Shown here piece after piece: positions 44,303-61,855 of a DNA stretch of 64,000 bases; positions within the stretch are counted from its first letter, which is position 1, and each line of letters begins with the position of its first letter. The notes under the pieces were generated by a model. The model was not told where the DNA came from. It saw only the letters and a program-made list of their open reading frames with translations, and made no database searches. The stretch is from an uncultured Gammaproteobacteria bacterium (GTDB taxonomy: Bacteria > Patescibacteriota > Microgenomatia > Levybacterales > UBA12049): positions 11,688 to 75,687 of the forward strand of contig CAZZCX010000003.1 of the NCBI GenBank assembly GCA_964653195.1, written 5' to 3'. The position numbers and the translations under genes were made by a program.

Positions 44303-44569
44303 ATGCCTTACGTTTATATTTTATTAAGCGAAAAGTACAATACATATTATATTGGGAGTACTAAAGATCTTATTCGTAGGTTAAAAGAACATACCTCAGG
44401 TGCATCAAGATTTACAAAGTATAGACTCCCACTTCGCCTGGTTTTTAGTCAAAAGTATCCAGATATAAAAAATGCCAGATCTGTCGAGAATTGGATTAAA
44501 AAACAAAAAGATAGGAAATTATTAATTAATATAATTAAAGAAGGTAAGATAAATAAAGAATTTGTATAG
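44303..44569 (+). CDS. GIY-YIG nuclease domain protein (88 aa)
   Basis: YVYILLS...YYIGSTKDLIRRLKEH...ENW matches the GIY-YIG core (GIY, YIG, Arg, Glu, Asn). Confidence 0.75.
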   Translation: MPYVYILLSEKYNTYYIGSTKDLIRRLKEHTSGASRFTKYRLPLRLVFSQKYPDIKNARSVENWIKKQKDRKLLINIIKEGKINKEFV

Positions 44570-45566: not shown

Positions 45567-45572
45567 AGCTTA

Positions 45573-45938
45573 TTATAAAGGTTGTGGTCCAGGTGGTTTA
45601 GGTTTCTTGGTCGGCTTACTACCGCCGTTGTTATTTCCATTATTATTTTCGTCGTCATCATCCGGGGTTCTGGTAGGTCTTGGTGTAGGGGTGACAGTGA
45701 CTACGATAAACGTACACGCATGTAGATTGTCTCCCTTACAGCTTGGATCAGGAATAGTTATGTATTCGGTGGTGATTCGAGTCCGGGGAGTGTTAGGTAT
45801 GAACAAAAAACCACCAATAACAAGGCTACCTGCTGCTATTGCGAGTATTATACTTATCCACCCTATTCCTTTTGCTTTTAGAATTTTCTTATTTTTTATG
45901 TGTTTAGTTTTATTTTTTAAACTTATTTTTTTTCTCAT
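45573..45938 (-). CDS. Small membrane-anchored protein with a Pro/Thr/Asn-rich low-complexity tail
   Basis: A TM segment WISIILAIAAGSLVIGGFLF is followed by TVTPTPRPTRTPDDDDENNNGNNNGGSKPTKKPKPPGPQPL. Confidence 0.4.
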   Translation of the reverse strand: MRKKISLKNKTKHIKNKKILKAKGIGWISIILAIAAGSLVIGGFLFIPNTPRTRITTEYITIPDPSCKGDNLHACTFIVVTVTPTPRPTRTPDDDDENNNGNNNGGSKPTKKPKPPGPQPL

Positions 45939-46036
45939 CTAATTAAAGAGTAGATGAGCATTTTATTAAAGTCAAGTAAACTCTAAGCATATTGTCATAC
46001 GTCAGTAAAATTGCTATTATAAGTTGGTTCAGAAAT

Positions 46037-46109
46037 GCCGAGGTAGCCAAGGTGGTCACGGCGGGTGTCTGAAGAACATCAGATATGTGTTCAACTCACA
46101 TCCTCGGCA
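46037..46109 (+). tRNA. tRNA-Phe (anticodon GAA)
   Basis: Acceptor GCCGAGG/CCUCGGC, anticodon stem GGUGU/ACAUC with loop CUGAAGA, and T-arm AUGUG-UUCAACU-CACAU. Confidence 0.65.
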
Positions 46110-46229
46110 CTTAAAATATAATTGATTTCTGTATATTATTTGTTTGAAAATTAAAAGAATCTGATTACTTTTTATCAAAGTGGAGAGATTTTTGCATCAA
46201 AAATATAGTATTCCTGCTAAATTTTTTTA

Positions 46230-46967
46230 CTACTGAGGTGTTGTACCGTATATAGTTATTAGAGTTCCTGGTGTTTCCTTAGTCGCATATGTGACATTTT
46301 TTGTACTGGGAGGATTTGCCCAATTATAAAGTTTCGCGACGTCTTCTTCTCGCATATTCACACATCCATGACTCATAGGATTTCCGAAATTATTATGCCA
46401 GTAAGCGCCATGTATCCCATATCCTTTACTTTTTGGTACTTTGTCATTATAGAAAAACATTGTGTAGGGTACATTGGGTAAGTTATAATAATTTGCGCCT
46501 GTTCCTCCCTGCATGCGGGTATAGCGGAGCTTTATCCAAATACGAAAATCACCAGTTGGAGTTGGCCACCAGGGTTTTCCTGAAGAAATCGTGAATTCAT
46601 GGATTAGTGTATTATTTTCGAAGGCGTACAATTTTTGTTTACTTAAGTCGACATAGATCCGCTTACTGTCTTCCGCCGTATCTCCAAGGACATTATTATT
46701 CACAGCAATTTTATATGGTTTGTCAGCTAACGCTGGACCAGCGATTTTTTTGCCTTCAAATTGCCCAGTGTTGTCATCTGAATAGTGGCCTGATAAATCA
46801 GAGATACAGCTTATGCTATTTGCACAATCGAGGTCATTTGTTGGTTTAGATGGGAGAAGTAGAATTGAGAAAATGCTTATGAAAAGTAGAGAAAATATAA
46901 GAATCAACTTTCTTTTATGATATAACAGTCCTTTCACCTTTTTATTTTTATTGTTTTTTCGAGGCAT
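46230..46967 (-). CDS. L,D-transpeptidase (YkuD domain), N-terminally anchored
   Basis: Catalytic motif SHGCVNM (His, Gly, Cys) near the C-terminus. Confidence 0.75.
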   Translation of the reverse strand: MPRKNNKNKKVKGLLYHKRKLILIFSLLFISIFSILLLPSKPTNDLDCANSISCISDLSGHYSDDNTGQFEGKKIAGPALADKPYKIAVNNNVLGDTAEDSKRIYVDLSKQKLYAFENNTLIHEFTISSGKPWWPTPTGDFRIWIKLRYTRMQGGTGANYYNLPNVPYTMFFYNDKVPKSKGYGIHGAYWHNNFGNPMSHGCVNMREEDVAKLYNWANPPSTKNVTYATKETPGTLITIYGTTPQ

Positions 46968-47067
46968 ACATATAGCGTAGGAAAAAAATAATTGTTTGTA
47001 AAGAAGGAAATTTATCTAATAAAATAAATCTATTAATTTAGAATAAAAATATAATTATGAGTTTGTG

Positions 47068-47139
47068 AGCGGTGGACCGGATTTGAACCGGCGACCTCGT
47101 CCTTGGCAAGGACGCATTCTACCACTGAACTACCACCGC
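47068..47139 (-). tRNA. tRNA-Gly (anticodon GCC)
   Basis: Reverse complement: acceptor GCGGUGG/CCACCGC, anticodon stem CGUCC/GGACG with loop UUGCCAA, and T-arm GCCGG-UUCAAAU-CCGGU. Confidence 0.75.
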
Positions 47140-47229
47140 AGGCTTTGATTATAGCAAATTCTATATTATTTGACACTTTTAATAACCCCCGTTATTTACT
47201 AAGATAGAATAAGTCAGGCAGATTTATAT

Positions 47230-48396
47230 ATGTTATCTTCTTATAATTATAAATTAATGCCTGAGAAAGAAAGCGAATCTACTTACTTATCTGCATTAGC
47301 TAAATTAGCATACCCAGTGAATAATATCCTTTTGTATTATGCAGGTCTTCCCTACTATTCTTATAATTTTTCAAGAGATAGTATTCTCTCGGCTATTCTA
47401 ATGCGTGACCCCTTAATGCTGCGTGATCAATTAGTTTTTTCTGCATTATTACAAGGCACAAGAAAAGATCCATTATCCGGTGAAGAGCCAGGAAAAATAT
47501 TTCACCAGATACCCAGTGTCCGTCAAAATAGATTATCAACAGAATATAACGCTTGTGATACAACCGCACTTTTTATTATTGGACATGAGGCATATCTAGA
47601 TATGACCAATGATTATCAATTTATAAAAAAACAAAGAGTGTATCTAGAGAAAGCAGTTGATTACATTTTAAAGCATCTTATGAATAATCTTTTTGTAGAA
47701 GATCCTAAGTTTTCAGATTCAAAACGATTTGCATTGAAAGTTACTTATTGGAAAGATTCTCAGGCACCAAACAGAAAGCATGGGCTACCAATTTATCCAG
47801 CAGTTTTTACTCTTGCTCATGTGCAGAATATGAAGGCTTTGAGAAGCGCTGCGAAATTGCTGGGTTTTAATGATTTGGAGACCAAAGCGTTAGAAATGAA
47901 AAGACATCTGACTATTCTTTTTGATGAAAAGCAAGGTATATTTGCTAGTGGCGTAGATCAACGAGGCTTTTTTCAAGGAACGAGCTCTGATAATCTTCAT
48001 ATGCTTTATTATCTTGATGAATCAGATATTACGAAAGAGAAAGTAAAAAGAATTTTGGAGAATTCTGTGAATTTAGAAACGCCATTAGGATATATGACCT
48101 TTAATACTGATAACGCTTCAACTGACCAGGATATCACCCATCATACCAATTATCACACTAATACAGTTTGGCCTTTCGAACAAGCATTTATACATCAGGC
48201 TGCTTTAAGATTCGGACTTGATACAGTTGCTAGTATTAGTGAAAGAATTTATCCCTATATTAAAGTTGATTTTCCAGAGCTTTTTCATTTAGAAAACGGA
48301 AGACATTATAAAAAAGGTTGTGATATACAGTTGTGGACTATTGCTGCAAGTATTTATTTTGCAAAATATTTTCAAAGCACAAATTCTTCAAAATGA
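47230..48396 (+). CDS. (alpha/alpha)6-barrel glycoside hydrolase, glycogen-debranching (amylo-alpha-1,6-glucosidase)-like
   Basis: Segments resemble the GDE_C/GH15-like toroid (NACDTTALFIIGHEAYL, TYWKDSQAPN, WPFEQAFIHQAALRFG). Confidence 0.45.
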   Translation: MLSSYNYKLMPEKESESTYLSALAKLAYPVNNILLYYAGLPYYSYNFSRDSILSAILMRDPLMLRDQLVFSALLQGTRKDPLSGEEPGKIFHQIPSVRQNRLSTEYNACDTTALFIIGHEAYLDMTNDYQFIKKQRVYLEKAVDYILKHLMNNLFVEDPKFSDSKRFALKVTYWKDSQAPNRKHGLPIYPAVFTLAHVQNMKALRSAAKLLGFNDLETKALEMKRHLTILFDEKQGIFASGVDQRGFFQGTSSDNLHMLYYLDESDITKEKVKRILENSVNLETPLGYMTFNTDNASTDQDITHHTNYHTNTVWPFEQAFIHQAALRFGLDTVASISERIYPYIKVDFPELFHLENGRHYKKGCDIQLWTIAASIYFAKYFQSTNSSK

Positions 48397-49694
48397 ATTT
48401 GGGATGGATGGACCCCGGAAGATTTTAATTCATTAGTTATGTTTTTTGCCATAGCTTTGGGTCCGCAAATATAAATATCAAATTCCATAAGATTACTTAC
48501 GTATTGTTTGATTAAATTTAGATCAATCCTGCCCTTTATTCCTTTGTACGTTTCCTCCCTGCTGATAACATAATAAATAGGAAATTTATATTTTTGTGAA
48601 AGGCTATCGAGTTCTTTTTCGAAAATAATATCAGATGAAGTTCTATTAGAATAAAAAAGTATTTGTTGTTTGTTGTTGCCAATACTTTCAATTATTGAGC
48701 GTATAGGAGTGATGCCAACTCCAGCTGCTATAAAAAGTATTTTATCTTTCTTCATGAATCTTTCCGTGAATGCACCATGTGGTCCATCGATAAGCAGTTT
48801 TGTGCCAGATTTAATTCTCATTAGTTTTTCTGTGAAATCTCCTTCTTTCTTTATTGTAATTCTGATAAATTCCCCATTTGGTATACTTGAAAACGAGAAA
48901 GGATGCGATTCCTTGCCAAGTTCTTTACTCAGAAAACGGACGAATAAAAATTGTCCTGGCTCAAAGTGAAAGCTATTCAAATCTATACCTTTTATAAAAA
49001 GAGAAATGGTATCATCCGTTTCTTTGCTAACTTTGTCTATATAAAAGCGATGTTTCTTAAATCTTAAAATTAATACTATAAAGCGTGTATAAATGGTAAT
49101 TGCGAAAACTATGAAATACATTAAATACCAATAATAAGAAAACCATTTGTTAACTAGAAAATCAGTTCCTACTGAAAATTGGTGGAAAAATGATAAAAGC
49201 ACAGCTATATAAACTGCTAAGTGGACGATATACCAGAATTCATAACGGAGTCTATTTCGCACGATATAAATCGATGAAAAGATGATTAGTAAAAAAGTTA
49301 TATAACCTATAAACGCAAGCCAGACATTTTCATATATAGTTATAAATTGAATGTATTGAGATATTGGATTTATTTTCCCTTGTATAGAATATCCAAGTGT
49401 AAGAAGCATTGGATGTGAGATTAAAAATACAGCAAGATACAAACCAATTTTTTTATGAATTTTATTCAATAATTCGTATCCGAATATTTTTTCAAGTGGC
49501 ATAATTCTTCCTCGAAGCACGAATTGAATTAAAATAAGATAAACAGTAATGAGGCCCATAAGTCGGCCTAAAGATATAAGTATTGATGCAGAAGACGTAA
49601 GATCTAATCCCGTTGTAGTTAGCCAAAAATATACAGTAATTATTAAAGGAGTCGCAAAAATGACATAAGTGATCCGTCTATTGATCATATTCAA
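48372..49694 (-). CDS. Ferric reductase / NADPH oxidase-like membrane flavoprotein (FRD transmembrane domain plus FAD plus NAD(P) domains)
   Basis: N-terminal polytopic region with His residues. FAD motif HPFSFSS (HPFT-like). NAD(P) motif AAGVGITPIRS. A C-terminal CGP. Confidence 0.7.
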   Translation of the reverse strand: MNMINRRITYVIFATPLIITVYFWLTTTGLDLTSSASILISLGRLMGLITVYLILIQFVLRGRIMPLEKIFGYELLNKIHKKIGLYLAVFLISHPMLLTLGYSIQGKINPISQYIQFITIYENVWLAFIGYITFLLIIFSSIYIVRNRLRYEFWYIVHLAVYIAVLLSFFHQFSVGTDFLVNKWFSYYWYLMYFIVFAITIYTRFIVLILRFKKHRFYIDKVSKETDDTISLFIKGIDLNSFHFEPGQFLFVRFLSKELGKESHPFSFSSIPNGEFIRITIKKEGDFTEKLMRIKSGTKLLIDGPHGAFTERFMKKDKILFIAAGVGITPIRSIIESIGNNKQQILFYSNRTSSDIIFEKELDSLSQKYKFPIYYVISREETYKGIKGRIDLNLIKQYVSNLMEFDIYICGPKAMAKNITNELKSSGVHPSQIHFEEFVL

Positions 49695-49721
49695 AAATTA
49701 TAAATTTTGTATTTGACTATA

Positions 49722-50159
49722 TTAATTAGAACAATATTTTTCAATCGCTTGGAAATCTAAACCAAAACTATTTTTGCTGAATTCGACGACACCTAAGCTT
49801 TGAGGGACTTTGCATACAACAGATAAAACACCGTCCCAGTTTGGATTTTCTATTTCTCCTCCATATCTTATGAGGCATAAATTTCCCGATTTTCCCAAAA
49901 CTGCAATTGTTACTGATCCAAATTCAAATCCTTTACTTTTTTTATCTTGGGAACAAGTCGTAAAATTAATCGATATATTATCATTTATTTCTTTTATGGT
50001 CTGCTTTTCAGAAAAGTCAGGCTCGATAAAGATAGCACGATCAGCACTATATTTATAAAAATATAATATGCTCGTAAATAACAGAATTCCGATTAATATA
50101 ATAATTATTTTCTTATTAAATATTTTTGAAGATATTTGTTTATTTACTTCCCATTTCAT
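49722..50159 (-). CDS. Hypothetical membrane-anchored protein
   Basis: An N-terminal TM (IIIILIGILLFTSILYF). No recognised domain. Confidence 0.3.
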   Translation of the reverse strand: MKWEVNKQISSKIFNKKIIIILIGILLFTSILYFYKYSADRAIFIEPDFSEKQTIKEINDNISINFTTCSQDKKSKGFEFGSVTIAVLGKSGNLCLIRYGGEIENPNWDGVLSVVCKVPQSLGVVEFSKNSFGLDFQAIEKYCSN

Positions 50160-50323
50160 GACATCAGTATATCAAATATAGTTAGTTATACTTAAAAGTT
50201 TTTTAAGTGGAGGTGAAAGCTTTAGAGTTTTTAGTTCATTTACAGCAAACCATTTTATTTCGGCAAACATGTCAGCAAATAATGTAGACTCTTCTATTGC
50301 TTGATAGTATTTTTTTAACTACG

Positions 50324-50815
50324 CTAAATTTTTAGAAAGTATCCTACGACTAATCCAATTGCTGTAGCCATTGCTCCTATGATAAAAAGCTCAATGGCAC
50401 TTCTTATTGGTTTATCTTCGACAATTTTTCCTTTTATATATCCAGTTATAAATAGGCCGATAAATGCAAATAGGATACTAATTACTCTTGTATCTGTAAA
50501 GTTGAATAAAAACAATGGACTTATCGGTATAAGGCCTGCCAGAAGATAACTTATAAACATTATGATAGCACCAAGTATTAGACTATCGTTGTGCTTGCCC
50601 GTTTTATCCATTTGGTGAACCGCTTTTTCTGAAGAATATTGGCCTGCAGCCATAGATGATGCTTCGACCATTACTGCAACCAAAGCAGCTAAAATTATTA
50701 TGTCCTTGTTTTGTACTCCGGTGCTAATTCCTACTACGACTCCAGTAGTGGAAACTAAACCATCCTGTAGACCAAATAAACCACTTCTTAGATAGTCTTC
50801 ATGTATCTTACCCAT
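50324..50815 (-). CDS. VIT1/CCC1-family iron/manganese transporter (membrane domain)
   Basis: GLFGLQDGLVSTTGVVVGIS matches the VIT-family DGLVS motif. Multiple TM segments are present. Confidence 0.55.
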   Translation of the reverse strand: MGKIHEDYLRSGLFGLQDGLVSTTGVVVGISTGVQNKDIIILAALVAVMVEASSMAAGQYSSEKAVHQMDKTGKHNDSLILGAIIMFISYLLAGLIPISPLFLFNFTDTRVISILFAFIGLFITGYIKGKIVEDKPIRSAIELFIIGAMATAIGLVVGYFLKI

Positions 50816-51455
50816 ATATATTTTACTATCATTTACAATTTTGATTTTACTATATCCAAACTATATCTGTCTAGTTTGGTTACTTTACATATTGGTAATT
50901 TATTCAGTTTGGGAGCTATACAAGTATATACCGATTTTTTTATCTGTAGTGGGAAAATATATCTATCTCGATGAGATTCAAATGTAAACTATAAAGATGA
51001 AAGATAAAAGTAGTTTTAACTATTTTTGCTTCTTTGGCTTTTTCTTCTCCTTCTTTCTTTTTTGATTATTTCTTTCGGCCATATATTCAGTATATAATTT
51101 CAAAACAAAATTGCAAGTACTATAACGATTTGATGCAGAATCTTGTCCCCGAATAAATAAAAGCTTATTATATTAGCTTCAATATCGTGCATGCGGTAGA
51201 ATTTGTCACAAATATCTTTTTAAGTGCCTAGGTTTTCAGTTCGCCTTATTTATATAGTTAAACAATGAGCGATCGTAGTGTGTCGAATTGCTGAGGCTAC
51301 CGGTCTGGACCCTTTCAGTCCTTATAACTCGCTCAGAAATTGTATCATCTCCAGGCTAAATGAGACAAATAAGACACCTAAAAAGGGGTGTCTCAAAAAA
51401 TCAGTCCGATTTATCCATTCAGTATCTGTTATACTGTTGGATAAGAGGTAATTTT

Positions 51456-51857
51456 ATGCTAAAAGGATTTAAGGATTTTATATTGAAGGGAAACGTTGTT
51501 GATCTTGCGGTAGCTGTCGTCATTGGTGTGGCTTTTGGTAATGTGGTGACAGCCATGGTCAAAGATTTAGTAACCCCATTAATTGGGGCTTTTGGCGGGA
51601 CACCTGATTTTTCTAATATATCTTTCACTATCAATAATAGTAAATTTATGGTTGGAGATTTTATTAACTCACTCATCTCCTTCCTAATGATTGCTGGGGT
51701 AATTTATTTTGCCGTGGTAATTCCGATGAATAAGCTGATGGAAAAGATGAAAAGCGGTAAAAGTGTCGATCCGACGGAAAAAGCTTGTCCCGAATGCCTA
51801 AGTCTCATACCCATTAAGGCTAAAAAATGTAAGTTCTGTGCTTCTGTTGTACGGTAA
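51456..51857 (+). CDS. mscL: Large-conductance mechanosensitive channel MscL with a C-terminal CxxC...CxxC extension
   Basis: MLKGFKDFILKGNVVDLAVAVVIGVAFG is canonical MscL. AAGAGG lies 8 nt upstream of this ATG. The track ORF start at 51360 is probably an upstream extension. Confidence 0.8.
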   Translation: MLKGFKDFILKGNVVDLAVAVVIGVAFGNVVTAMVKDLVTPLIGAFGGTPDFSNISFTINNSKFMVGDFINSLISFLMIAGVIYFAVVIPMNKLMEKMKSGKSVDPTEKACPECLSLIPIKAKKCKFCASVVR

Positions 51858-52111
51858 CTAACTCAGGTTAAACTATTATATCTTCCGGATATCATATGCC
51901 CAGTGTAGTAATGTTTGGCGCTGTTTCTTCCGGCAAGTTTCATCAAATGGTAGACTGTTATTTTTAATTTGAGCTATGTAACGCACCATAGCTTTCCACC
52001 GCTTGATTTGCCGTAGAAGTTCTTGGCTACCAATACCAGTCAGACAATATCGACAGCAAGAAAGGTAATAAACGAAATTAAGTAGAGTTTTAAAAACATA
52101 TCATTTCTGGT

Positions 52112-52891
52112 TTAATTTTTAGACTTATTAAAAAAAACTAATTTCCCTTCCGCTAGGATAAATAATCCGATACAAATCAAGACGGTAGTAATGACCGGAG
52201 TGAATTGGCTGGCAAAAGTGGAAGTGTGTTTAATCCAGATCCCAAAATATGCCCAAATCAATACTAACCCATAGGCTTTACTACTATCTTTAAGCATTCT
52301 TACGAGACCTATAGCAGCGCCAACCAAGAGAATAATCACCATCCACAGCTGATTGGTCAACCCGAAGCCGTTCCAATTAATACTCACTAAAAACGTCGTA
52401 ATGTTGGCAATGGTAGCTACCGTAATCCACCCAAAATAGACGCTAAACGGCACCCTAATAAGAAAGTTTTCCTTTGTTGATAAGTGCAGTTGTTTGGTAA
52501 TATCAGCAATTTTAATCAGACAATAAAGAATCACCAGCATGAAGATCACTGAAATACCAATCTGGTGATAATGCCAGGAGAAAATCCACAGTATATTTGC
52601 AAGCGAACTGGTAATGTAATAGGTATTAATATCTGTAAATACCCTGCTCGTCGAAGTTAAGATCTTCTTTGGAAATATCCCTGTCTGATAAATCGTATAG
52701 GCCGCCAGCAGTGCATAGATCACTCCCCAGATTGAAAAGGTTAAGGCAGCGGGAGCAAACAGGTTTGGATACGAGTTAGACACATCGCCGGTAGTCGTGT
52801 TATTGATTGGCAAAATATTAGCCAAGGCATTAACAACGACCATACCGATGAATGTTATGACTGCCAATATTGTTTTAGTCTTATTATTCAT
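52112..52891 (-). CDS. TspO/MBR-related polytopic membrane protein (long form)
   Basis: LFAPAALTFSIWGVIYALLAAY resembles the TspO first-helix motif (PxW.F..vWt.LY). Confidence 0.4.
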   Translation of the reverse strand: MNNKTKTILAVITFIGMVVVNALANILPINNTTTGDVSNSYPNLFAPAALTFSIWGVIYALLAAYTIYQTGIFPKKILTSTSRVFTDINTYYITSSLANILWIFSWHYHQIGISVIFMLVILYCLIKIADITKQLHLSTKENFLIRVPFSVYFGWITVATIANITTFLVSINWNGFGLTNQLWMVIILLVGAAIGLVRMLKDSSKAYGLVLIWAYFGIWIKHTSTFASQFTPVITTVLICIGLFILAEGKLVFFNKSKN

Positions 52892-52994
52892 AAATTTCTC
52901 CTCTGAAATTCAGGAAGAAATAGAATTCTTCTCTTTAATAATACCACAAACAACACCTTCCCCATGATGGACTTAAGTCTGAATTATCCTTAAA

Positions 52995-53402
52995 TTATTC
53001 AGTCGTCACTCCGTCAAACTCTTCCTCGTTTGCAATTGCATCAGCTTTCGTTGCACGTACTATTCCATCTTTGTGATGAGCTGGACTATAGATGGTATAC
53101 ATCTTTAATTCTTCAGTTGCTGAGACATTGATAATGTTATGCTTTGCCCCTGCTGGAATAACGATAGCATCTCCATCAGTAACAGCGTATTCGTTGCCAT
53201 CAATGAAGCATTTTCCCTGTCCCATCTCAAAACGGAAGAACTGGTCATTGTCGGGATGCGTTTCCATACCGATTTCTTCATTGGGTTTAAGGGACATGAG
53301 CACTAACTGACTGTGTTTTCCGGTGTAGAGTACTTTACGAAAATTGGTATTTTCGCGAGTCGCTTTTTCAATATTTATGTTAAATCCTTTCATACATATC
53401 AC
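52995..53402 (-). CDS. Cupin-domain protein
   Basis: The conserved-barrel pattern GMETHPDNDQFFRFEMGQG...GDAIVIPAGAKHN (cupin motifs 1 and 2 with His ligands). Confidence 0.65.
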   Translation of the reverse strand: MICMKGFNINIEKATRENTNFRKVLYTGKHSQLVLMSLKPNEEIGMETHPDNDQFFRFEMGQGKCFIDGNEYAVTDGDAIVIPAGAKHNIINVSATEELKMYTIYSPAHHKDGIVRATKADAIANEEEFDGVTTE

Positions 53403-53407
53403 CTCCT

Positions 53408-53854
53408 TTATTTATTTAAATACGTAATAGTAACTTGTAAAACAGTTGCAAATAATACCCACAAAAGATATGGAACTTGAATGTAGGCAATCCACCGCGC
53501 ATGAGGAAAGATTGCCAACATGGCCCAGATCAGAGTTATTAAAACAAGTAAGATATCTACTGAAGCAAGAAGATTATTCTTCAACCCAAATTGCAGTGGG
53601 GTAAATAAAGCATTAAATATAAGGTTTAGGATAAATGGCAGGGCTACAATGAAGGCGACTTCCTTTTTCCAGGTCATCCAGAATACTTTGCCAAAAGAAA
53701 TAGCGATCAGAATATAGAGAAATGTCCACACCGGACCAAAAAGCCACGAGGGAGGTGACCAGGAGGGTTTAATAAGTTTTTGATACCAAGAATATGTGTC
53801 TATATGCTTATATTGTACTCTGTTTACGATTATTTTATCTGTAAGAATCATCAA
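53408..53854 (-). CDS. tspO: TspO/MBR family tryptophan-rich sensory protein
   Basis: KPSWSPPSWLFGPVWTFLYILIA is the canonical TspO motif. It is 148 aa with five TM helices. Confidence 0.75.
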   Translation of the reverse strand: MMILTDKIIVNRVQYKHIDTYSWYQKLIKPSWSPPSWLFGPVWTFLYILIAISFGKVFWMTWKKEVAFIVALPFILNLIFNALFTPLQFGLKNNLLASVDILLVLITLIWAMLAIFPHARWIAYIQVPYLLWVLFATVLQVTITYLNK

Positions 53855-53902
53855 TCAACTCTCACTCAACTCTAGACCTATAATACTCATTGACAACGAC
53901 AG

Positions 53903-53931
53903 TCCGTTTCTGTAATATTAAATTGTTCCTA
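53903..53931 (+). promoter_or_regulatory. Candidate sigma-70 promoter (TTGACA, 17 bp, TAATAT) for the ParB-MTase gene
   Basis: cattgacaacgacagtccgtttctgtaatattaa. Confidence 0.4.
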
Positions 53932-54045
53932 CAAAAAGGAACCGGTGTCGACGAGCACCGTTATAAATGACGCCTTAGGAAAGAACTTAGGAATTGTAAG
54001 TTTTTTCTCGAGGCGTTTTTTTATGGTTATAAGTTACAAAACATT

Positions 54046-55389
54046 ATGAATAACAAGATCCAAATCCAGTATGTTCCGATCAATAGCTTAAAATTTGCCG
54101 AATACAACCCTCGCAAAATCAGTGAGATAGATCTGGATGGCTTAGTTGCTAGCCTCACGGAATTCGGTACAGTTGATCCATTACTGGTAAATAACGCCCC
54201 GGGAAGAGAAGGGACCGTTATAGGAGGCAACCAGCGTCTTACTGCTCTGAGGAAGATGGGACATACGGAAGTTCCCGTAGTCTTTTTGACTATTCCAGAT
54301 CTTGAACGGGAGAAAGAATTAAACGTGCGGTTGAATCGGAATCAGGGAGAATGGGACTTTGACCTGCTGGCGAAGTTCGATGAGTCTCTCCTGAAGAACA
54401 TTGGCTTCTCCAGCGAAGAACTGGATAATATTTTTGATATTGATCCCACTCCTGAAATATTTGACCTTGAAAAGGAATTAAAGAAGCTAAAAATTGATAG
54501 TATCCAGACACAAAAAGGAGATGTCTACAAGCTGGGTGAGTCTCGACTCATGTGCGGCGACTCCACGATTGAGGCAGATATGTTAAAGCTTATGAACGGA
54601 GAGAAAGCTTATGCCTGCATCACTGACCCACCCTATATTTTGGACTATCTAAACGGCAAACAACGACATGGGAATCCCACCGTAGGATTTGGAGCCAAAA
54701 AGAATCGCAGATACCTAGAAACCGATGTGCTTCCTCCTGACTTTACAGAAAAATGGATGGCGAATGTTAATAAAGTTCAGGAAGAACACTTCAGCATCAT
54801 CGTATATGAAAACTGGAAAAACATTCGGATTATCTGGGGAGAGATGGAAAAATACTGGAAGGTTAAGAATATGATTGTTTGGCATTTGCCCAATCGTAAT
54901 CAAGGGTATGCGGCCAGCCACAAGTTTTTCTCAAAGCACGATATTGCTATGGTTGGAGCCTCTGCAGGTGTTGATGTCGAGTTCAATGATGAACCTGAAG
55001 AAGATGGGTTGCAGAACGAATATGAAACTGCCCTGTACGCAATATCGGGAAACCCTCAGTGGGAGGGATACAAGAAAGGAAAAAAGATCCAACCCACAGA
55101 CTTCATCGACTACAAAGCATCTGATGAGAAAAGTTCTGGACAAGGGATCATCTTTGGCACTAAGCCAATCGAAATCCTGATTCCCTATATCAAGGTACTG
55201 ACCAAACGAAACGATATTGTACTGGAACCGTTTTCAGGAAGCGGAAGCACTCTTATCGCTTGTACCAAGATGAAAAGACGTTGCTATGGAATGGAAAAGT
55301 CACCAGTGTATACAGAAGTGATCAAAAAACGATGGGAAAATCTCACCGAGAGGAAGGCTGTAAAAATTGACCAAACCGAAAAACTATGA
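54046..55389 (+). CDS. ParB-like nuclease domain fused to an N6-adenine/N4-cytosine DNA methyltransferase (beta class)
   Basis: The N-terminal ParB/Srx fold (GGNQRLTAL). MTase motif IV ITDPPY precedes motif I FSGSGST, which is the beta-class order. This is a phage-type orphan MTase architecture. GC is elevated. Confidence 0.75.
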   Translation: MNNKIQIQYVPINSLKFAEYNPRKISEIDLDGLVASLTEFGTVDPLLVNNAPGREGTVIGGNQRLTALRKMGHTEVPVVFLTIPDLEREKELNVRLNRNQGEWDFDLLAKFDESLLKNIGFSSEELDNIFDIDPTPEIFDLEKELKKLKIDSIQTQKGDVYKLGESRLMCGDSTIEADMLKLMNGEKAYACITDPPYILDYLNGKQRHGNPTVGFGAKKNRRYLETDVLPPDFTEKWMANVNKVQEEHFSIIVYENWKNIRIIWGEMEKYWKVKNMIVWHLPNRNQGYAASHKFFSKHDIAMVGASAGVDVEFNDEPEEDGLQNEYETALYAISGNPQWEGYKKGKKIQPTDFIDYKASDEKSSGQGIIFGTKPIEILIPYIKVLTKRNDIVLEPFSGSGSTLIACTKMKRRCYGMEKSPVYTEVIKKRWENLTERKAVKIDQTEKL

Positions 55390-55805
55390 AAAGCAAAACG
55401 ATTGTAAAACGACAACAAAAAGATAAGGAGGCAGTGATAGAAAACCTTAAGCGGATGCCGATTATCGAGATTGCCTGCAATAAAAGTGGCGTATCTCGTG
55501 CAACCTATTATCGGTGGAAGGAACAAAATCCGGCTTTTTCCCAAGCGGTTGATAAAGCACAGGAGGAGGGTGAAGCATTAATTAGGGATGTGGCGGTCAG
55601 TAAAATCATCAAGGGAATCAATGATGACAATTTAACGGCAGCCATGTATTGGCTGAACCATCGAGATCCCCGGTTTAGCAACAAAGTTGAGATATCGACA
55701 ACCACAAAACCTCAGGAAGCGTTATCTAAAGAACAGGAAGAGGTGGTCAAGAAAGCACTGGCATTAACTGGTATTAGCGAGAGTGACCAGAAAAATAAAA
55801 GTTGA
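55386..55805 (+). CDS. Phage-type HTH protein, probable terminase small subunit
   Basis: HTH segment CNKSGVSRATYYRWKE. Its position immediately upstream of the terminase large subunit and its overlap with the flanking genes support the call. Confidence 0.45.
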   Translation: MKSKTIVKRQQKDKEAVIENLKRMPIIEIACNKSGVSRATYYRWKEQNPAFSQAVDKAQEEGEALIRDVAVSKIIKGINDDNLTAAMYWLNHRDPRFSNKVEISTTTKPQEALSKEQEEVVKKALALTGISESDQKNKS

Positions 55806-57013
55806 AAATAAATATGGCTATATTACCTAATCTTATAAAACTACTTATGAGTGATCGCCGGATTCGGATCGAAGCGACCCGCCGTGATCTCTCACTATTC
55901 TTCAGTTTTTACTTCACCAAATATATTAAATATGAAATTGCCCCATTTCAAAACGAGATATTAAGACTCCTTCAAGATGTGCAAAACAGACAAATTGTGA
56001 TAACAGCGTTCCGTAACTCTGCAAAGTCTACCTTTTGCAGTCTCGTACTTCCGATTTGGTCTGTGGTTGGGATACACAACAAGAAGAATATTTTACTGGT
56101 CAGCCAAACTGACCCGAAAGCGGAGCAACTGCTCATAGATATCCGCAGAATGCTGGTTTCCCAGAGTTTACTACTTGATGATCACGGCACTTTTTACAGT
56201 AGTAATGACGAATGGAACAAGCGGACTTTAGTGATACCAAAATACGGAGCAAGAATTACGGCAGTATCTATTGGCGAAAGTATTCGTGGAATGAGACATG
56301 AAGAGAGTCGTCCGGATCTAATTATTTACGACGATATTGAAGATGTTCAGTCGGCCAAAACCCAAGAAGGTCGAGATAAACTGTGGGAAATCGTCACCCG
56401 TGAATTTATGCCACTCGGGACCAAAGACACACGACACATTTTTATAGGAAATTTAGTCCATCCGGATTCTACTATGGTTCGTTTGCGAGAACTAATCTAA
56501 AGCGGAAGAATGTCAGGGATCTATCGAGAATATCCACTTATTAAAGATGATGTAATTTTATGGCCGGGACAATTTCCTGATATGGATGCTATTGAGGAAT
56601 TCAAAAAAAGCTTACCAAGCGAGATTGATTTTTTACGGGAATACATGCTTCAAATTATTCCGGAAGGCAGTCGGCTTGTGTTTGCGAAAGATATCCAAAG
56701 ATATGAAGAAAATGATCTGCGTTCTCGATCCGACTTTCAAATGTATCTAATTTTGATTGATCCAGCGGTATCGGGAGAGAGAACATCAAAACATGATAAA
56801 ACCAGCATTATTGTTGTGAGAGTTTACGGATCAGGTGAAACAATGAAAATGTATATCAGCCCCAATCCAATTAATGACTGGCTTGAGTGGCCGCAAATCA
56901 TTGAAAAGGTTCAGAACATAGTTGCTTCATTTGGAGAATCCGCTACATTGAAATTGCAATACAATGCAAGTTTCTATAGCAATAAAAACATTCTAGTCGA
57001 TCTTGGAATGTAA
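55802..57013 (+). pseudogene. Terminase large subunit remnant. The ATPase domain is intact to 56497, an in-frame TAA lies at 56498-56500, the frame continues to 57013, and the nuclease domain is truncated.
   Basis: A Walker A-like AFRNSAKST and a Walker B LIIYDDIED. After the stop, the same frame encodes LILIDPAVSGERTSKHDKTSIIVV (start of the RNaseH-like nuclease domain) and then ends early. Confidence 0.6.
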
Positions 57014-57031
57014 TAACAGATCTGTTATTTC

Positions 57032-57057
57032 AAAAACCCCTTTTAAAAGGGGTTTTT
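57032..57057. terminator. Perfectly palindromic hairpin flanked by A-run and T-run (bidirectional terminator)
   Basis: aaaaaccccttttaaaaggggttttt. Confidence 0.6.
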
Positions 57058-57093
57058 GATTGGTTTTGATACCCTATCCTGTATAATACACTT

Positions 57094-57768
57094 ATGAGAA
57101 TTTTGGTAGTTGAAGATGAGTCAAAGCTTTCTAACAACATTAAGCAAGGATTAACAGAAAGTGGATTTGCTGTTGATCAGGCATTTGATGGTGAAGAGGG
57201 GCAATATTTGGCAGAATCAGAAGAGTATGATGCAATCGTGCTTGATGTCATGCTACCAAAGATTGACGGTGTGACCTTATGCAAAGAGCTACGTAGAAAA
57301 CAGAAAAAAACTCCGATACTTATGCTCACTGCAAAGTCCAGGTTAGATGACAAGATAGAAGGACTTGATGCAGGAGCGGATGATTATCTAACAAAACCGT
57401 TTGAATTTGCTGAACTGAAATCCCGTATCAATGCACTTTTGCGCAGAAGTCATAACCAAGCAGAGACAATCATTGCCATAGGAGATCTTGTGGTTGATCC
57501 AAAATCACATAAGGTGGAACGAAATAGTAAAACCATTTCTTTAACTGCAAAAGAATTTGCCATTTTAGAATTTCTAGCACGACATAAAGATGAGGTCGTA
57601 ACACGAACACAAATACTTGAACATACATGGGATTATAATTTCGACAGTATGTCCAACATAGTTGATGTTTTTGTAGCAACCTTAAGAAAAAAAATTGATG
57701 GAGAGTCCAAAAAGAAATTATTGCATACAGTTAGAGGTGTAGGCTTTAAATTAAGCGAACAGGGATAA
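57094..57768 (+). CDS. OmpR-family two-component response regulator
   Basis: A receiver domain (VVEDE, D at LDVMLP, the K of LTAK) and a winged-helix output (VRGVGFKL). Confidence 0.9.
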   Translation: MRILVVEDESKLSNNIKQGLTESGFAVDQAFDGEEGQYLAESEEYDAIVLDVMLPKIDGVTLCKELRRKQKKTPILMLTAKSRLDDKIEGLDAGADDYLTKPFEFAELKSRINALLRRSHNQAETIIAIGDLVVDPKSHKVERNSKTISLTAKEFAILEFLARHKDEVVTRTQILEHTWDYNFDSMSNIVDVFVATLRKKIDGESKKKLLHTVRGVGFKLSEQG

Positions 57769-57769
57769 T

Positions 57770-58771
57770 ATGAATACTTTACTTAAGACTCTTCGTGCCC
57801 GCCTAATTCTTGGATATGTTGGTAGTATCGCTTTTTTTACCCTCTTTTTCTATATAGTAGTACATAATTTTGCGCTACCACATAGTGATCATATTTATAT
57901 AGTTCTATTTGTGATTTTTACTGTTTTAGGAATATTTCTTATTTATCGCATAACGAAATCAATAACCTATGTATCCTCCAGAATACGTCATATATCACGA
58001 AAAAACCTTGATGAGAGAATCACAGATATTAATTCAGAGGATGAAATTGGTGAACTTGCAGCATCATTCAATAGCTTACTTGATAACATGAATGATGCAT
58101 TTAAAAGAGAACAACAATTTATTGGAGATGTTGCACACGAATTAAAAACCCCGCTTGCTACACAAAGAAGTTCTCTTGAGGTAACTCTCTCCAAAGACAG
58201 GACGAAAGAAGATTATAAGAAGGCGTTGGAATCAGCACTCGAAGAAAATAACCATATATCATCAACACTGAAAAATGTACTTGATCTTGCCTGGTCTGAA
58301 ACACATGAAGAAAAGAAAAACAGTGCAGTTTTTGATCTATCGGAATTAATGGAAGAATTACGTGATATTACAGAAAAGTTGGCTCAATCCAAAAAAATAA
58401 CAGTTGAAGCGTCAATTCACGAGGATATACATGTAGAAGGATTTAAAGATAAGCTAGCAAGAGCCTTACTTAATATAATTGATAATGCAGTGAAATATAC
58501 GCATAAAGGAAAGATATCAATAAAACTCAGAAAGTCACACAACAGGGCATTTTTGACAATTTCTGATACAGGTCAAGGAATAGAATCTGAAGAATTAACC
58601 AAAATTTTTACTAGATTTTATAGAGGTTCAAAAACAGATAAAATTTTAGGTTCAGGATTAGGTTTGGCAATAACAAAATCTGTAATTACACTTCACAATG
58701 GACATATTAATGTTGAAAGTAAATTGAATATAGGTACAACGTTTACTATTATCCTTCCTCTGGCTCAATAG
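57770..58771 (+). CDS. Sensor histidine kinase (two TM segments, HAMP, HisKA, HATPase_c)
   Basis: The H-box VAHELKTPL, the N-box IIDNAVKYT and the G-boxes DTGQGI and GSGLGL. Confidence 0.9.
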   Translation: MNTLLKTLRARLILGYVGSIAFFTLFFYIVVHNFALPHSDHIYIVLFVIFTVLGIFLIYRITKSITYVSSRIRHISRKNLDERITDINSEDEIGELAASFNSLLDNMNDAFKREQQFIGDVAHELKTPLATQRSSLEVTLSKDRTKEDYKKALESALEENNHISSTLKNVLDLAWSETHEEKKNSAVFDLSELMEELRDITEKLAQSKKITVEASIHEDIHVEGFKDKLARALLNIIDNAVKYTHKGKISIKLRKSHNRAFLTISDTGQGIESEELTKIFTRFYRGSKTDKILGSGLGLAITKSVITLHNGHINVESKLNIGTTFTIILPLAQ

Positions 58772-58826: not shown

Positions 58827-59354
58827 ATGCATCATAATAAACAAAACTACAGCTCGGGGATTAGCGAAAAAAAGATTGGTATTCTTTTGATTCTTACAAC
58901 AGTAGCGATTTTATTTGGTGGCATTCTTTTTCTTAACAATACATCTGCATCATCCCAGGTAGTCGCATCAGCTAACGCCGAAGCTGTTGTAGAGAGTGAT
59001 ACCTACGACTGGGGGAATATTCCGATCAACGGTGGAAATGTTACCAAAAAATTTAGTATCAGAAATACTGGTTCTGATCCATTGCAACTTACCAATATTA
59101 GAACATCATGTCACTGCACAACAGCCAGTGTCACAATTTACGGCAATGAAAGTCCATCATTTGGAATGAGTGGAACTTCTCAATGGGTTGGAGAAGTGAA
59201 GCCAGGACAAGAAGCAACATTAAATGTTGTCTTTGATCCTCTATTTCATGGTCCGCAGGGAACTGGTCCAGTAAACAGATATATCTCAGTCGAAACAAAT
59301 GACAAATCAAATAGTAAATTAACATTTTCATTAACAGGAGTCGTTATTAAATAA
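58827..59354 (+). CDS. DUF1573-domain protein, membrane-anchored
   Basis: YDWGNIPINGGNVTKKFSIRNTGSDPLQLTNIRTSCHCT matches the DUF1573 pattern (YDFG...NtG...L.I..v.tSCGCT). Confidence 0.65.
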   Translation: MHHNKQNYSSGISEKKIGILLILTTVAILFGGILFLNNTSASSQVVASANAEAVVESDTYDWGNIPINGGNVTKKFSIRNTGSDPLQLTNIRTSCHCTTASVTIYGNESPSFGMSGTSQWVGEVKPGQEATLNVVFDPLFHGPQGTGPVNRYISVETNDKSNSKLTFSLTGVVIK

Positions 59355-59355
59355 T

Positions 59356-60198
59356 ATGGGAGGAATGGAAGGGGTATTATTACAAACATCACTTATAGCA
59401 GCGTTCGTTGCAGGTATTGTTGCACTCTTTGCGCCATGCTGTATTTCATTTTTGCTTCCAGCATATCTAGGTAATGTCTTCAAGGAGAAAGAAAAAGTTG
59501 TCCTCATGACTCTTATATTTGGAGCTGGCATTTTTACAGTTATGATGCCTGCAGTGTTAGGAGTAGCAGCATTATCACGATTTTTGTTTGACTATCATGA
59601 TGGGATTTATTATCTAGGAGGTGTTGTCATGCTTTTATCCGCAGCAATAACTTTTCTTGGTATAAAATTCCCAATGCCACAATTACCAGGGAGAGATACT
59701 ACTAAAACAGATCCATTGTCAGTATTTACCCTTGGTATATTTTCAGGAATTACTAGTGCATGCTGCGCTCCTGTTTTAATTGGTATATTAACCCTTACCT
59801 TCTTATCTCCTAACTTTTTTGGGGCAATGGCTATAGGTGGAATGTATGTATTAGGAATGGTGATGCCGCTTCTTTTCATTGCGGTCTTTTTATCAGGAAA
59901 GATGACAAGGTTTATGTTTTTACGAAAACCTGTTACAAGTTTTAACTTCTTAGGTAAAGAAAGAACAGTAATTATGAGTAATCTGATTGCAAGTATCATC
60001 TTTTTCCTGACAGGGATATTTATCATTTATTTGAAATCAATCGGAAGACTTGGCATGGAAGATACAGAAGGATTCACGAAGATGATTACTGATGCTAGTA
60101 GCTATGTCAATCAATTTGTCGGTGGAAGCATACTGCTCAATATCATTTTTGTCGTCCTGATCATATATGGACTATATAAGATTGCAAAGCGAGCATAA
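59356..60198 (+). CDS. CcdA/DsbD-family thiol-disulfide transporter-like membrane protein
   Basis: A polytopic protein with Cys pairs inside TM helices (LFAPCCISF, ITSACCAPVL). It is adjacent to DUF1573, a recurrent pairing. Confidence 0.55.
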   Translation: MGGMEGVLLQTSLIAAFVAGIVALFAPCCISFLLPAYLGNVFKEKEKVVLMTLIFGAGIFTVMMPAVLGVAALSRFLFDYHDGIYYLGGVVMLLSAAITFLGIKFPMPQLPGRDTTKTDPLSVFTLGIFSGITSACCAPVLIGILTLTFLSPNFFGAMAIGGMYVLGMVMPLLFIAVFLSGKMTRFMFLRKPVTSFNFLGKERTVIMSNLIASIIFFLTGIFIIYLKSIGRLGMEDTEGFTKMITDASSYVNQFVGGSILLNIIFVVLIIYGLYKIAKRA

Positions 60199-60242
60199 AA
60201 ATCTTAATGATTTCTTAATAATTTATTTAGTAACCTAAGATT

Positions 60243-61604
60243 ATGAATAAAACAACAATAGATATTACCGGAATGCACTGCAAGTCATGTGAAATCCTCA
60301 TTGGAGATGAATTATTAAAAATCCCAAATGTTAAGAATGCAAAAGTATCCCAAAAAAAAGGGTGTGCTGAAATAATCCATGAAGGTAGATTAAATCATAA
60401 TGATGTGGCTTATGCAGTGAAAGAGGCAGGATATTCACTCGGAAAAGAAAAACGACATTTCTTTTCAAGAAATCCTGAAGATTACACAGAACTAGGAATT
60501 GCTGTTACCGCACTTTTTATTATTTGGGCTGTAGCCTACTTAAATGGATGGTTTAATGTTGATGCCTCTGGTCTTAATAATTATGCAAGCCTTCCTATTG
60601 TTTTTCTTATAGGTATTACAGCAGGAATCTCAACATGTATGGCACTCATTGGAGGATTAGTATTGGGTGCGGCCGCTAGATTTTCAGAAAAGCATCCAGC
60701 TGCTACTGCATTACAGAAATTTAAACCTCATCTCTATTTTAATCTTGGTCGAATACTTTCATTTTTCTTCTTTGGTGCAGTAATCGGGTATCTCGGATCA
60801 TTCTTCAGACTAGCACCTTCAACACTTGGCTTTCTTATTATTCTTGTAGGTATCGTTATGCTTTTCCTGGGATTACAACTTGTCGACATATTCCCTAAAT
60901 TAAGCGGTATGACTTTTACTTTACCAAAACAATTAAGTAATCTACTTGGTATTAAAAGTCGTAACGACAAAGAATATAGCCATAAGAATTCGATGATTCT
61001 TGGTGCTATGACATTTTTCCTCCCTTGTGGTTTTACTCAGGCAATGCAGCTTTTCGCGATGAGTACAGGCAGTCCAGTTACCGGAGCATTAACAATGGGA
61101 GTATTCGCTATCGGAACAGCTCCAGGGCTTCTCTCAATTGGAGGACTGACATCAGTTGTTAAGGGAGCATTTGCAAGAGTATTCTTTCGATTCGCAGGAG
61201 CAGTCGTTATCGCTCTTGCTTTCTTTAATATAACAAGCGGATATACATTAACCGGAATAAAAGGTATTTCCCTGCCTAAATTCGATAATGTCCTTTCTTC
61301 ATCAACAAGCAATGCGGCTCCAAAAGGAGAAGTTCAAGTTATAAAAGCGACATATTCCGCATCAAACGGTTTTCAACCAAAAGAACTAAGCGTTAAAGCA
61401 GGTGTTCCCGCACGACTTGAAGTAGAGGCGTTTGATAATGGTGCTGGATGCATGGGAAGTATAGCCTTACCTGGTTTATCACAAAACATGGAGATCTTTA
61501 AGAAAGGTCAAAAAGCAGTGTTTGATTTCACAGCAGAAAGTACCGGATCATACACGATAGCTTGCGCGATGGGTATTCCTCACGGAACCCTCAAAGCTAT
61601 TTAA
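60243..61604 (+). CDS. Tripartite protein: N-terminal HMA metal-binding domain, a polytopic DsbD_2/TauE-like membrane region, and a C-terminal cupredoxin-like domain
   Basis: GMHCKSCE (the GMxCxxC HMA motif). The central TM region carries FFLPCGFTQAM. The C-terminal roughly 110 aa has His/Cys/His/Met-type spacing (GAGCMGS ... YTIACAMGIPHG). Confidence 0.55.
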   Translation: MNKTTIDITGMHCKSCEILIGDELLKIPNVKNAKVSQKKGCAEIIHEGRLNHNDVAYAVKEAGYSLGKEKRHFFSRNPEDYTELGIAVTALFIIWAVAYLNGWFNVDASGLNNYASLPIVFLIGITAGISTCMALIGGLVLGAAARFSEKHPAATALQKFKPHLYFNLGRILSFFFFGAVIGYLGSFFRLAPSTLGFLIILVGIVMLFLGLQLVDIFPKLSGMTFTLPKQLSNLLGIKSRNDKEYSHKNSMILGAMTFFLPCGFTQAMQLFAMSTGSPVTGALTMGVFAIGTAPGLLSIGGLTSVVKGAFARVFFRFAGAVVIALAFFNITSGYTLTGIKGISLPKFDNVLSSSTSNAAPKGEVQVIKATYSASNGFQPKELSVKAGVPARLEVEAFDNGAGCMGSIALPGLSQNMEIFKKGQKAVFDFTAESTGSYTIACAMGIPHGTLKAI

Positions 61605-61645
61605 TCTTAATAATTCCTTAATAATTTATTTAGTAAGCTAAACAT

Positions 61646-61855
61646 ATGAAAACAACTACATTAAAACTTTCAGGACTTACATGCACAGCATGTACAAAGT
61701 TAATTACAAAACGAATTAAAACGATTGTTGATGTTGCAGATGTAACTGTCGAACTTCCTGGTACAGCGACTATAAAAGCTGAAAGAGAAGTTACAGAAGA
61801 AGAAGTTAAAAAAGTATTAGAAGGGACACATTATAGTGTTGTTGGAAAAAAATAA
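61646..61855 (+). CDS. copZ: Copper chaperone CopZ (single HMA domain)
   Basis: A 69-aa protein with [13 protein letters not shown]. Confidence 0.85.

Follow-up and report, generated by a model that had tools for sequence, protein, structure and literature searches.

Phage-inducible chromosomal islands (PICIs) and Staphylococcus aureus pathogenicity islands (SaPIs), including the capsid-forming cf-PICIs, are integrative islands that bring their own recombinase and repressor and carry packaging genes together with accessory or defence cargo without being full viruses. Classical PICIs encode a small terminase subunit (TerS) or redirecting factors and lack a large terminase subunit (TerL); cf-PICIs have a TerL plus portal, protease and capsid genes. 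Here we describe an island in a 64-kb stretch of contig CAZZCX010000003.1 (hereafter the window) and a family of similar elements, 7-19 kb in size, in bacteria of the Candidate Phyla Radiation (CPR). Taking its acquisition and its family membership together, we consider it likely that the window contains at least 15.1 kb of horizontally acquired DNA (51297 to past the window end) at the 3' end of a tRNA-Gln gene, and that this island belongs to a family of terminase-bearing islands of CPR bacteria. Its relatives have an integrase, a repressor and TerS/TerL genes, and the virion module is absent. In contrast to PICIs and cf-PICIs, they combine TerS and TerL with no structural gene at all, the integrase is a large serine recombinase and not a tyrosine recombinase, the repressor is LexA-like, and no primase, replicase or replication module was recognised.

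Two further systems are close enough to be compared. Tycheposons of Prochlorococcus are also tRNA-associated, site-specific islands of streamlined genomes and carry niche-adaptive cargo. Their recombinases are tyrosine recombinases in 910 of 937 cases, they contain replication hallmark genes, a subset has a phage packaging gene, and the PICI-like tycheposons have a terS or capsid gene and no cargo (bioRxiv 10.1101/2020.12.28.424599). The CPR elements, in contrast, unite TerS, TerL, a ParB-methyltransferase and cargo in one element, and of the tycheposon hallmark genes tested they have none. The packaging modules of temperate phages contain ParB-methyltransferase, TerS and TerL (phrog_498, phrog_309 and phrog_38) in the same order, and the intact members of the CPR family have the Walker A and B motifs and the RNase-H-type nuclease residues of such terminases. 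Whereas portal and head genes come after TerL in phages, the TerLs of the CPR clade have cargo and a serine recombinase behind them.

Insertion of the island and damage to its large terminase

The left junction of the island was located by comparison with contigs of near-identical strains, which were retrieved by looking up exact matches to the protein of VIT1, a gene to the left of the island. Two of these contigs, L164 and L168, are 98-99% identical to the window up to position 51296 and then diverge. Past the equivalent position they continue with GGGGACATGGATTCGAACC..., a minus-strand 3' fragment of tRNA-Gln, about 60 nt, a complete tRNA-Gln(ttg) and genes for GIY-YIG, NUDIX and SulP proteins. 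A third contig, L175, has the same empty arrangement, and the tRNA-Gln/GIY-YIG/NUDIX/SulP DNA of the empty-site strains occurs nowhere in the window or in L162, an independent contig that matches the window from 56663 to the equivalent of 66427 at 100% identity. Three empty-site contigs from strains with 98-99% identity lack the island, which shows that it was horizontally acquired. Empty and occupied alleles thus coexist among near-identical strains at an att site, with the junction at the 3' end of tRNA-Gln, and the left crossover point was probably at the shared GG. The junction itself is crossed by another independent assembly (L165), which reproduces window positions 44761-54761 at 99.99% identity.

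At the empty site of L164 and L168, the second, incomplete copy of the 3' half of tRNA-Gln, which lies about 60 nt from the full gene, resembles a scar left there by a previous integration or excision. Small GIY-YIG (T5orf172-like) genes adjoin tRNAs both at this empty site and at window positions 44303-44569. A second strain difference lies beside the island, where 2.2 kb of L164 (9436-11673) stand opposite window positions 50266-50313; the extra DNA encodes a 388-aa PsbP_2-like and a 140-aa NUDIX protein between VIT1 and a 145-aa gene, both absent from the window.

The base composition agrees with a foreign origin of this DNA. The original prediction had singled out 51.4-57.0 kb as a G+C-rich stretch, and sliding-window computation bears this out: the GC content of 51360-57060 is 39.5% compared to 33.9% in the backbone (1-51296), and no backbone window of equal size reaches this level (maximum 0.3685). 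In 1-kb steps, GC amounts to 0.36-0.38 at 51-54 kb and 0.40-0.42 at 54-57 kb (window mean about 0.34), and the tetranucleotide distance from the backbone peaks at 54-57 kb with z = 8.7. From 57 kb onward, the right part of the island has a GC content of 0.365 and tetranucleotide z values of 2.9-5.2, so that all three island segments lie above the backbone in both measures. Of the two borders proposed earlier, the left one, expected near 50.8-51.4 kb, is found at 51296/51297, whereas the right one at 57.0 kb did not hold. Because foreign DNA runs on to at least 66.4 kb, position 57060 is best read, from the sequence, as the scar of an internal deletion and not as a border. The att repeats suggested for these borders were not detected, as no att-type direct repeats connect the two. 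A contig walk that set out from the NUDIX gene of the empty site did not reach the island's right end, as every contig breaks at the GIY-YIG/tRNA region.

Within the island, a packaging module of three genes had been proposed, consisting of a ParB nuclease fused to a beta-class DNA methyltransferase, a helix-turn-helix (HTH) small terminase and a large terminase, and profile searches agree on all three (Table 1). The methyltransferase part of the fusion matches PF01555 (E = 1.5e-21) and has ITDPPY ahead of PFSGSGST, which is the beta-class motif order; the protein is 93% identical in amino acids to its homologue in L001 at a dN/dS of 0.04. TerL is a genuine phage-type large terminase (phrog_38, E = 3e-41; NF033889) that retains Walker A (FRNSAKST) and Walker B (DLIIYDDIED) aligned to invariant columns. 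Its nearest homologues are intact proteins of 521-523 aa with up to 95% amino acid identity (P0001), in which the codon of the reported in-frame TAA encodes Gln233. Homology breaks off at 56946-56948 after "GESAT", corresponding to residue ~382 of 523. The missing ~141 C-terminal residues include the conserved E384 and D451/D452/D455 (P0001 numbering), and of the nuclease residues only D316, the first nuclease Asp (LILIDPAVS), is retained. The claim that most of the nuclease domain is gone was thus too strong, the loss amounting to about a quarter of TerL. By the CAA-to-TAA nonsense change and the deletion of the last ~141 codons together with what came after them, the TerL of the window is predicted to have lost its function.

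Nucleotide homology to three relatives (L001, L002 and L083) is 85-88% over 3.0 kb and collinear, beginning at 53939/53951 and ending at 56946/56948. Across four segments, dN/dS against these relatives is 0.03-0.07, which shows that purifying selection keeps the genes of the family functional and that the damage to the window's TerL is recent. In the same three relatives the recombinase sits directly after TerL, where the window has its deletion, and tblastn with 136 queries revealed no homologue of the serine recombinase or of LexA in the 64-kb window or in L162. The recombinase of this copy may have been deleted or may lie past 66.4 kb; the place of the LexA-like repressor is taken by the genes for TspO, the cupin, a 259-aa protein and mscL. 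The decay of the window copy is limited to the TerL stop codon, the internal deletion and the absent repressor and recombinase.

A terminase family without virion genes in CPR bacteria

Family members were defined as loci with a TerL of the window's clade (loci are labelled L###, their TerLs P####), and genes in these loci were called with a simple open reading frame (ORF) caller and grouped by BLASTP clustering. The TerL clade comprises more than 570 confirmed sites among the matches listed, with one genome per species, mostly from CPR bacteria. Nearly all records with a name belong to CPR lineages, among them Woese-, Gottesman-, Saccharibacteria, Nomura-, Peri-, Moranii-, Gracili-, Dojkabacteria and WWE3; closed genomes with an element include CP011214.1, CP175956.1, OZ246402.1 and BOLA01000001.1. 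About 45 more contigs with a related element are filed as viral in IMG/VR. PHROG profiles recognise the terminase, and in a comparison with 50,697 phage records the best TerL match shows 31% identity; it is to Mu-like phages of Pseudomonas and others.

Across about 120 loci, the usual order is a LexA-like repressor (not always present), ParB-methyltransferase, TerS, TerL, cargo, a large serine recombinase and often a tRNA. Counted over 124 loci, a ParB-methyltransferase lies at most three genes upstream of TerL in 116 and TerS is found in 96. A serine recombinase on the same strand follows downstream of TerL in 86 of the 96 loci that have more than 3 kb of downstream sequence, and it lies directly next to TerL in 43. 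A LexA-like gene lies upstream in 34 loci, and a minus-strand tRNA lies at most 2 kb past the recombinase in 22. The three closest relatives of the window have an intact TerL followed at once by a recombinase of 436-452 aa (Resolvase + Recombinase + Zn_ribbon_recom), and the two with upstream DNA present (L002 and L083) have a divergent S24/LexA-like gene ahead of the ParB-methyltransferase. From the left motif described below to the end of the recombinase, the elements span 6.8-18.8 kb, and two copies can occur in one metagenome-assembled genome (MAG) or on one contig.

The search for virion genes covered the TerL loci and their cargo. No portal, capsid or protease family was found among 117 non-core proteins from 17 elements or in the ~120 related loci, and Pfam and PHROG searches of the window proteins gave no virion gene. 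As a positive control, portal and major head genes do come directly after more distant TerLs, with at most 33% identity (L125, L128-L161), and after these only. In a neighbour-joining tree, 127 TerLs with a ParB-methyltransferase or recombinase context form one clade that includes no TerL from a phage context. Because purifying selection is strong (dN/dS 0.03-0.07), the capsid-less state is the normal condition of the element and not a result of decay. The 117 non-core proteins include cyclic-oligonucleotide-based anti-phage signalling system (CBASS) nucleotidyltransferases, type I and III restriction-modification (RM) systems, reverse transcriptase (RT) and Avd of diversity-generating retroelements (DGRs), XRE regulators, TspO, P-type ATPases and multicopper oxidases.

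Structural genes had been suspected in three loci (L021, L034 and L091), which on Pfam and PHROG summaries and inspection by eye appear to contain a DGR cassette and a type III RM system. Such apparent cassettes (RT and Avd by Pfam/PHROG, with a putative variable protein) and an apparent type III RM system lie between TerL and recombinase in L021 (11623-14499), L091 (9579-12490), L034 and L037. Some members have a second methyltransferase beside the ParB-methyltransferase fusion. In a subgroup that includes Peribacteria loci, TerLs of ~520 aa occur as tandem pairs (L006, L013, L022, L024, L087, L088, L090, L101 and L103), usually with a second, stand-alone methyltransferase of ~257 aa after the ParB-methyltransferase.

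The family is apparently undescribed. Full-text searches of the literature, whose coverage is incomplete so that an earlier description is possible, found no account of an element with terminase and serine recombinase in CPR bacteria. One study of Patescibacteria MAGs lists genomic islands and prophages including nzgw467, which corresponds to L021, and these lists do not name terminases or recombinases.

Left-end motif, RNA elements and cargo

The left end of the island is marked by a conserved motif (Table 1) that was detected in the window at 51304-51415 (nhmmer E = 2.4e-10) and thus begins 1-8 nt past the synteny break. The family motif is about 150 nt long and the window copy is 92% identical to that of L002. 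The nhmmer profile gave 24 copies, 23 in 22 fetched loci and one in the window, all of them on the strand of the module and mostly 1-9 kb upstream of the ParB-methyltransferase, while ~0.1 chance matches are expected for a 20-mer. The start resembles the T-arm or acceptor of a minus-strand tRNA; after it, ATGAGACA(A) occurs twice in direct and once in inverted orientation. Behind the T-arm-like start the motif has AAATGAGACAAATGAGACAC and an inverted TGTCTCATTT; copies lie, for example, in L100 (1183-1331) and L043 (1099-1245). An Rfam search at the motif gave no family even at E <= 10, and RNAalifold on an alignment of 18 sequences gave no consensus structure, and for these reasons we take the motif as a DNA site or terminator and not as an RNA gene. 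Candidate roles are those of an attP arm, of a site for protein binding, of a pac site or of a bidirectional terminator. Direct repeats between the motif and the region past the recombinase were absent in nine loci; the lack of long direct repeats is expected for a serine recombinase.

In front of the packaging genes lie a promoter-like site and a structured leader (Table 1). Both are kept in L001, L002, L083 and L003, and three pairs of the leader show compensatory changes. By analogy with phage late operons, the leader hairpin may be a terminator that has to be overcome, which suggests antitermination control of the packaging operon.

A further RNA is linked to the recombinase end of the elements. 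LOOT RNA (RF03000) was found in four of seven related loci at the gathering score (76-86 bits) and, with a model built from its own hits, in 28 of 85 sources searched. Where the recombinase is visible, LOOT mostly lies just 3' of it on the same strand or just 5' of it and divergent. None was detected in the window at the gathering score or in the window plus L162 with the own model. Rfam lists LOOT only as sRNA, and the main text of the paper on LOOT makes no link to such elements; its tie to the element family and to the recombinase gene is an observation of this analysis.

Table 1. Features of the island in the window (left end to right) and examples of LOOT RNA in related loci
Feature	Position	Strand	Evidence and remarks
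Left junction	51289..51296	-	Last bases common with empty-site strains (TGCTGAGG vs TGCTGGGG); 3' acceptor remnant of a tRNA-Gln(ttg) copy or fragment
Conserved left-end motif	51297..51415	+	tRNA T-arm-like start (CGGTCTGGACCC), then AAATGAGACAAATAAGACAC, GAGACAC/GTGTCTC hairpin
mscL	51456..51857	+	PF01741, E = 7e-33, residues 33-147 of the long ORF; TIGR00220
259-aa multi-pass membrane protein	52112..52891	-	Homologues of ~57-59% identity named "tryptophan-rich sensory protein" by NCBI
Cupin (Cupin_2)	52995..53402	-	PF07883, E = 6e-15
TspO/MBR, 148 aa	53408..53854	-	PF03073, E = 1e-31
Promoter-like site TTGACA-17-TAATAT	53890-53918	+	Joint top score on the module's strand in 51.0-57.4 kb, 10/12
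Structured leader	53919-54045	+	Long hairpin and U7 just before the ParB-methyltransferase start; minimum free energy -44.9 kcal/mol, z = -6.5
ParB_N + N6_N4_Mtase fusion, 447 aa	54046..55389	+	phrog_498, E = 5e-80; full length (relatives 445-448 aa, same start)
TerS, HTH type, 139 aa	55386..55805	+	phrog_309, E = 3.5e-14; intact
TerL, ATPase part	55814..56500	+	Ends at premature TAA 56498-56500 (CAA, Gln, in relatives)
TerL continuation, same frame	56501..56948	+	Homology to residues ~234-382 of intact TerL (523 aa)
Non-homologous TerL-frame tail	56949..57060	+	Stop 57011-57013, then perfect 15+15 nt palindromic terminator 57030-57059
OmpR-type response regulator and HAMP/HisKA histidine kinase	57094..58771	+	Pfam; same two clusters 3' of intact TerL in L076
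DUF1573, 280-aa membrane protein, HMA-DsbD_2-cupredoxin, CopZ-like HMA	58827..61855	+	DUF1573 and membrane clusters also 3' of TerL in L076
Heavy-metal P-type ATPase, 1218 aa	61836..64000, off window	+	Continues in L162
LOOT RNA, L025	13599-13731
LOOT RNA, L043	11591-11719
LOOT RNA, L046	12602-12723
LOOT RNA, L126	4850-4979
LOOT RNA, 24 further loci

The remnant in the window is a fixed island of cargo genes (mscL, TspO, cupin, two-component system, copper resistance). Pfam confirms the mscL and cupin genes predicted earlier; the true start of mscL is probably 51456, and its product is extended at the C-terminus by a zinc-ribbon-like tail containing two CxxC pairs (CPECLSLIPIKAKKCKFC). Of the two TspO genes predicted, the 148-aa protein stands, and the same TspO family is found inside or beside the packaging module in L046 and L053. 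The 259-aa protein matches no Pfam or NCBIfam family including PF03073, even at E <= 10, and has no similarity to the 148-aa TspO in BLASTP (E = 0.26), so that its TspO label rests only on the NCBI name of its homologues, which in other CPR genomes lie in a housekeeping gene context.

The right part of the island includes a copper-resistance cluster. A Gottesmanbacteria locus with an intact TerL (L076) has the same cargo families downstream. Past the P-type ATPase, L162 continues with genes for CsoR and DUF2933 and a partial gene that is DUF305-like by eye; this last visible gene of the island gave no plasmid match. A 61-nt repeat of 84% identity (60200-60260 and 61603-61663) extends across the starts of two HMA-domain genes and may reflect shared HMA N-termini with their upstream regions or a shared regulatory site.

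Possible transfer in foreign capsids and rival explanations

By analogy, packaging into capsids made by another element, as in satellites of the PICI/SaPI type, appears the likeliest way for the CPR elements to spread, and we tentatively put forward satellite-like packaging in the capsids of another phage as a possible mechanism. In this mechanism, the serine recombinase would use a tRNA-like attP to insert the element at tRNA 3' ends, which is proposed because the left motif is T-arm-like and tRNAs lie past the recombinase. The LexA-like repressor would tie induction to DNA damage, its loss being the trigger, and intact elements would be excised by the serine recombinase. TerS and TerL would then cut the element's own DNA and fill it into procapsids that a helper phage provides in trans, and the methyltransferase might mark or protect the packaged DNA. 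More doubtful is the wider view that these elements are an ancient, phylum-wide class of CPR satellites, each with its own TerS, TerL and ParB-methyltransferase but no capsid genes, a LOOT-flanked recombinase for integration at tRNA 3' ends, a dependence on helper procapsids and a LexA-like switch. If they are, the window would hold a recently disabled copy, and the cargo moved from one ultra-small cell to another would be defence, DGR and stress- or metal-resistance genes; to this wider view we assign a rather low probability.

Several points weigh against the main interpretation. The ORF caller used for the related loci is crude, and some carrier records (e.g. L003, L010, L025 and L067) are titled Pseudomonadales, Gammaproteobacteria, Bdellovibrionales, Flavobacteriaceae or Methanoregula, which, given their gene content, may be artefacts of naming or binning. 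No primase or helicase hallmark is among the frequent cargo families, a replication module was not recognised, and none of the fetched contigs has terminal overlaps indicating circular or excised forms. For satellite-type transfer, neither a helper phage nor a pac site was identified. The left motif was found in just 22 of ~125 loci. As the right end of the island is unseen, the recombinase could still be present in the unseen part, and a rearrangement might have brought the DNA at 57-66 kb next to the module, in which case it would not be original cargo.

The original prediction saw in this locus a degraded prophage or phage-derived island. Its core, acquired DNA with an inactivated phage-type packaging module, is retained here. 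That the island is what remains of an ordinary full-length temperate CPR phage after loss of its structural, lysis and replication genes is, however, very improbable, even though a trio of genes like this one is typical for the packaging modules of phages, TerL is visibly decayed and related contigs are filed as viral in IMG/VR. The same capsid-less order with a serine recombinase at its end recurs in ~120 loci from very different CPR lineages, and independent decay would not reach one end state each time. The TerL clade, moreover, excludes TerLs that have portal genes after them, no structural family is present in the cargo proteins, and the low dN/dS values speak against decay. Still less credence is due to an assembly or binning chimera as the cause of the composition jump and the gene order. 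In its favour are the metagenomic origin of the sequence and the breaks of related Logan contigs within the module, but the independent contigs L165 and L162 cross the left junction and cover 56663-66427, respectively, and 53939-56948 is collinear with three relatives; only 54762-56662 is without an independent identical contig.

More weight, while still unlikely, is to be given to the view that the elements are not satellites at all and represent either a module of benefit to the host, for instance one for terminase/methyltransferase-based anti-phage defence or DNA processing that a defence island carries, or the packaging half of a split particle system like a gene transfer agent (GTA), with its structural genes at another place in the genome. 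Defence genes (CBASS, RM and DGR) are abundant in the cargo, a LexA-like regulator is often adjacent, the spread across CPR classes is very wide, and the lack of a recognised replication module also fits. However, the only PADLOC models matching the module are those for a generic methyltransferase, and the association with recombinase and tRNA, the presence or absence of the island in near-identical strains and the occurrence of up to two copies per contig indicate a mobile element.

A mobile, terminase-bearing island family bears on a question about which little is known, the movement of genes between CPR bacteria, which have tiny genomes and are mostly uncultured. The family suggests that a major route of gene transfer, probably dependent on phage capsids, has gone unrecognised. 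LOOT RNA, so far an orphan, would gain a genomic home, and islands of this kind are filed as viruses by virus-detection pipelines. For this genome, the island explains the origin of the mscL, TspO and cupin genes and of the copper-resistance cluster, and the empty and occupied alleles in near-identical strains make the insertion event directly testable.

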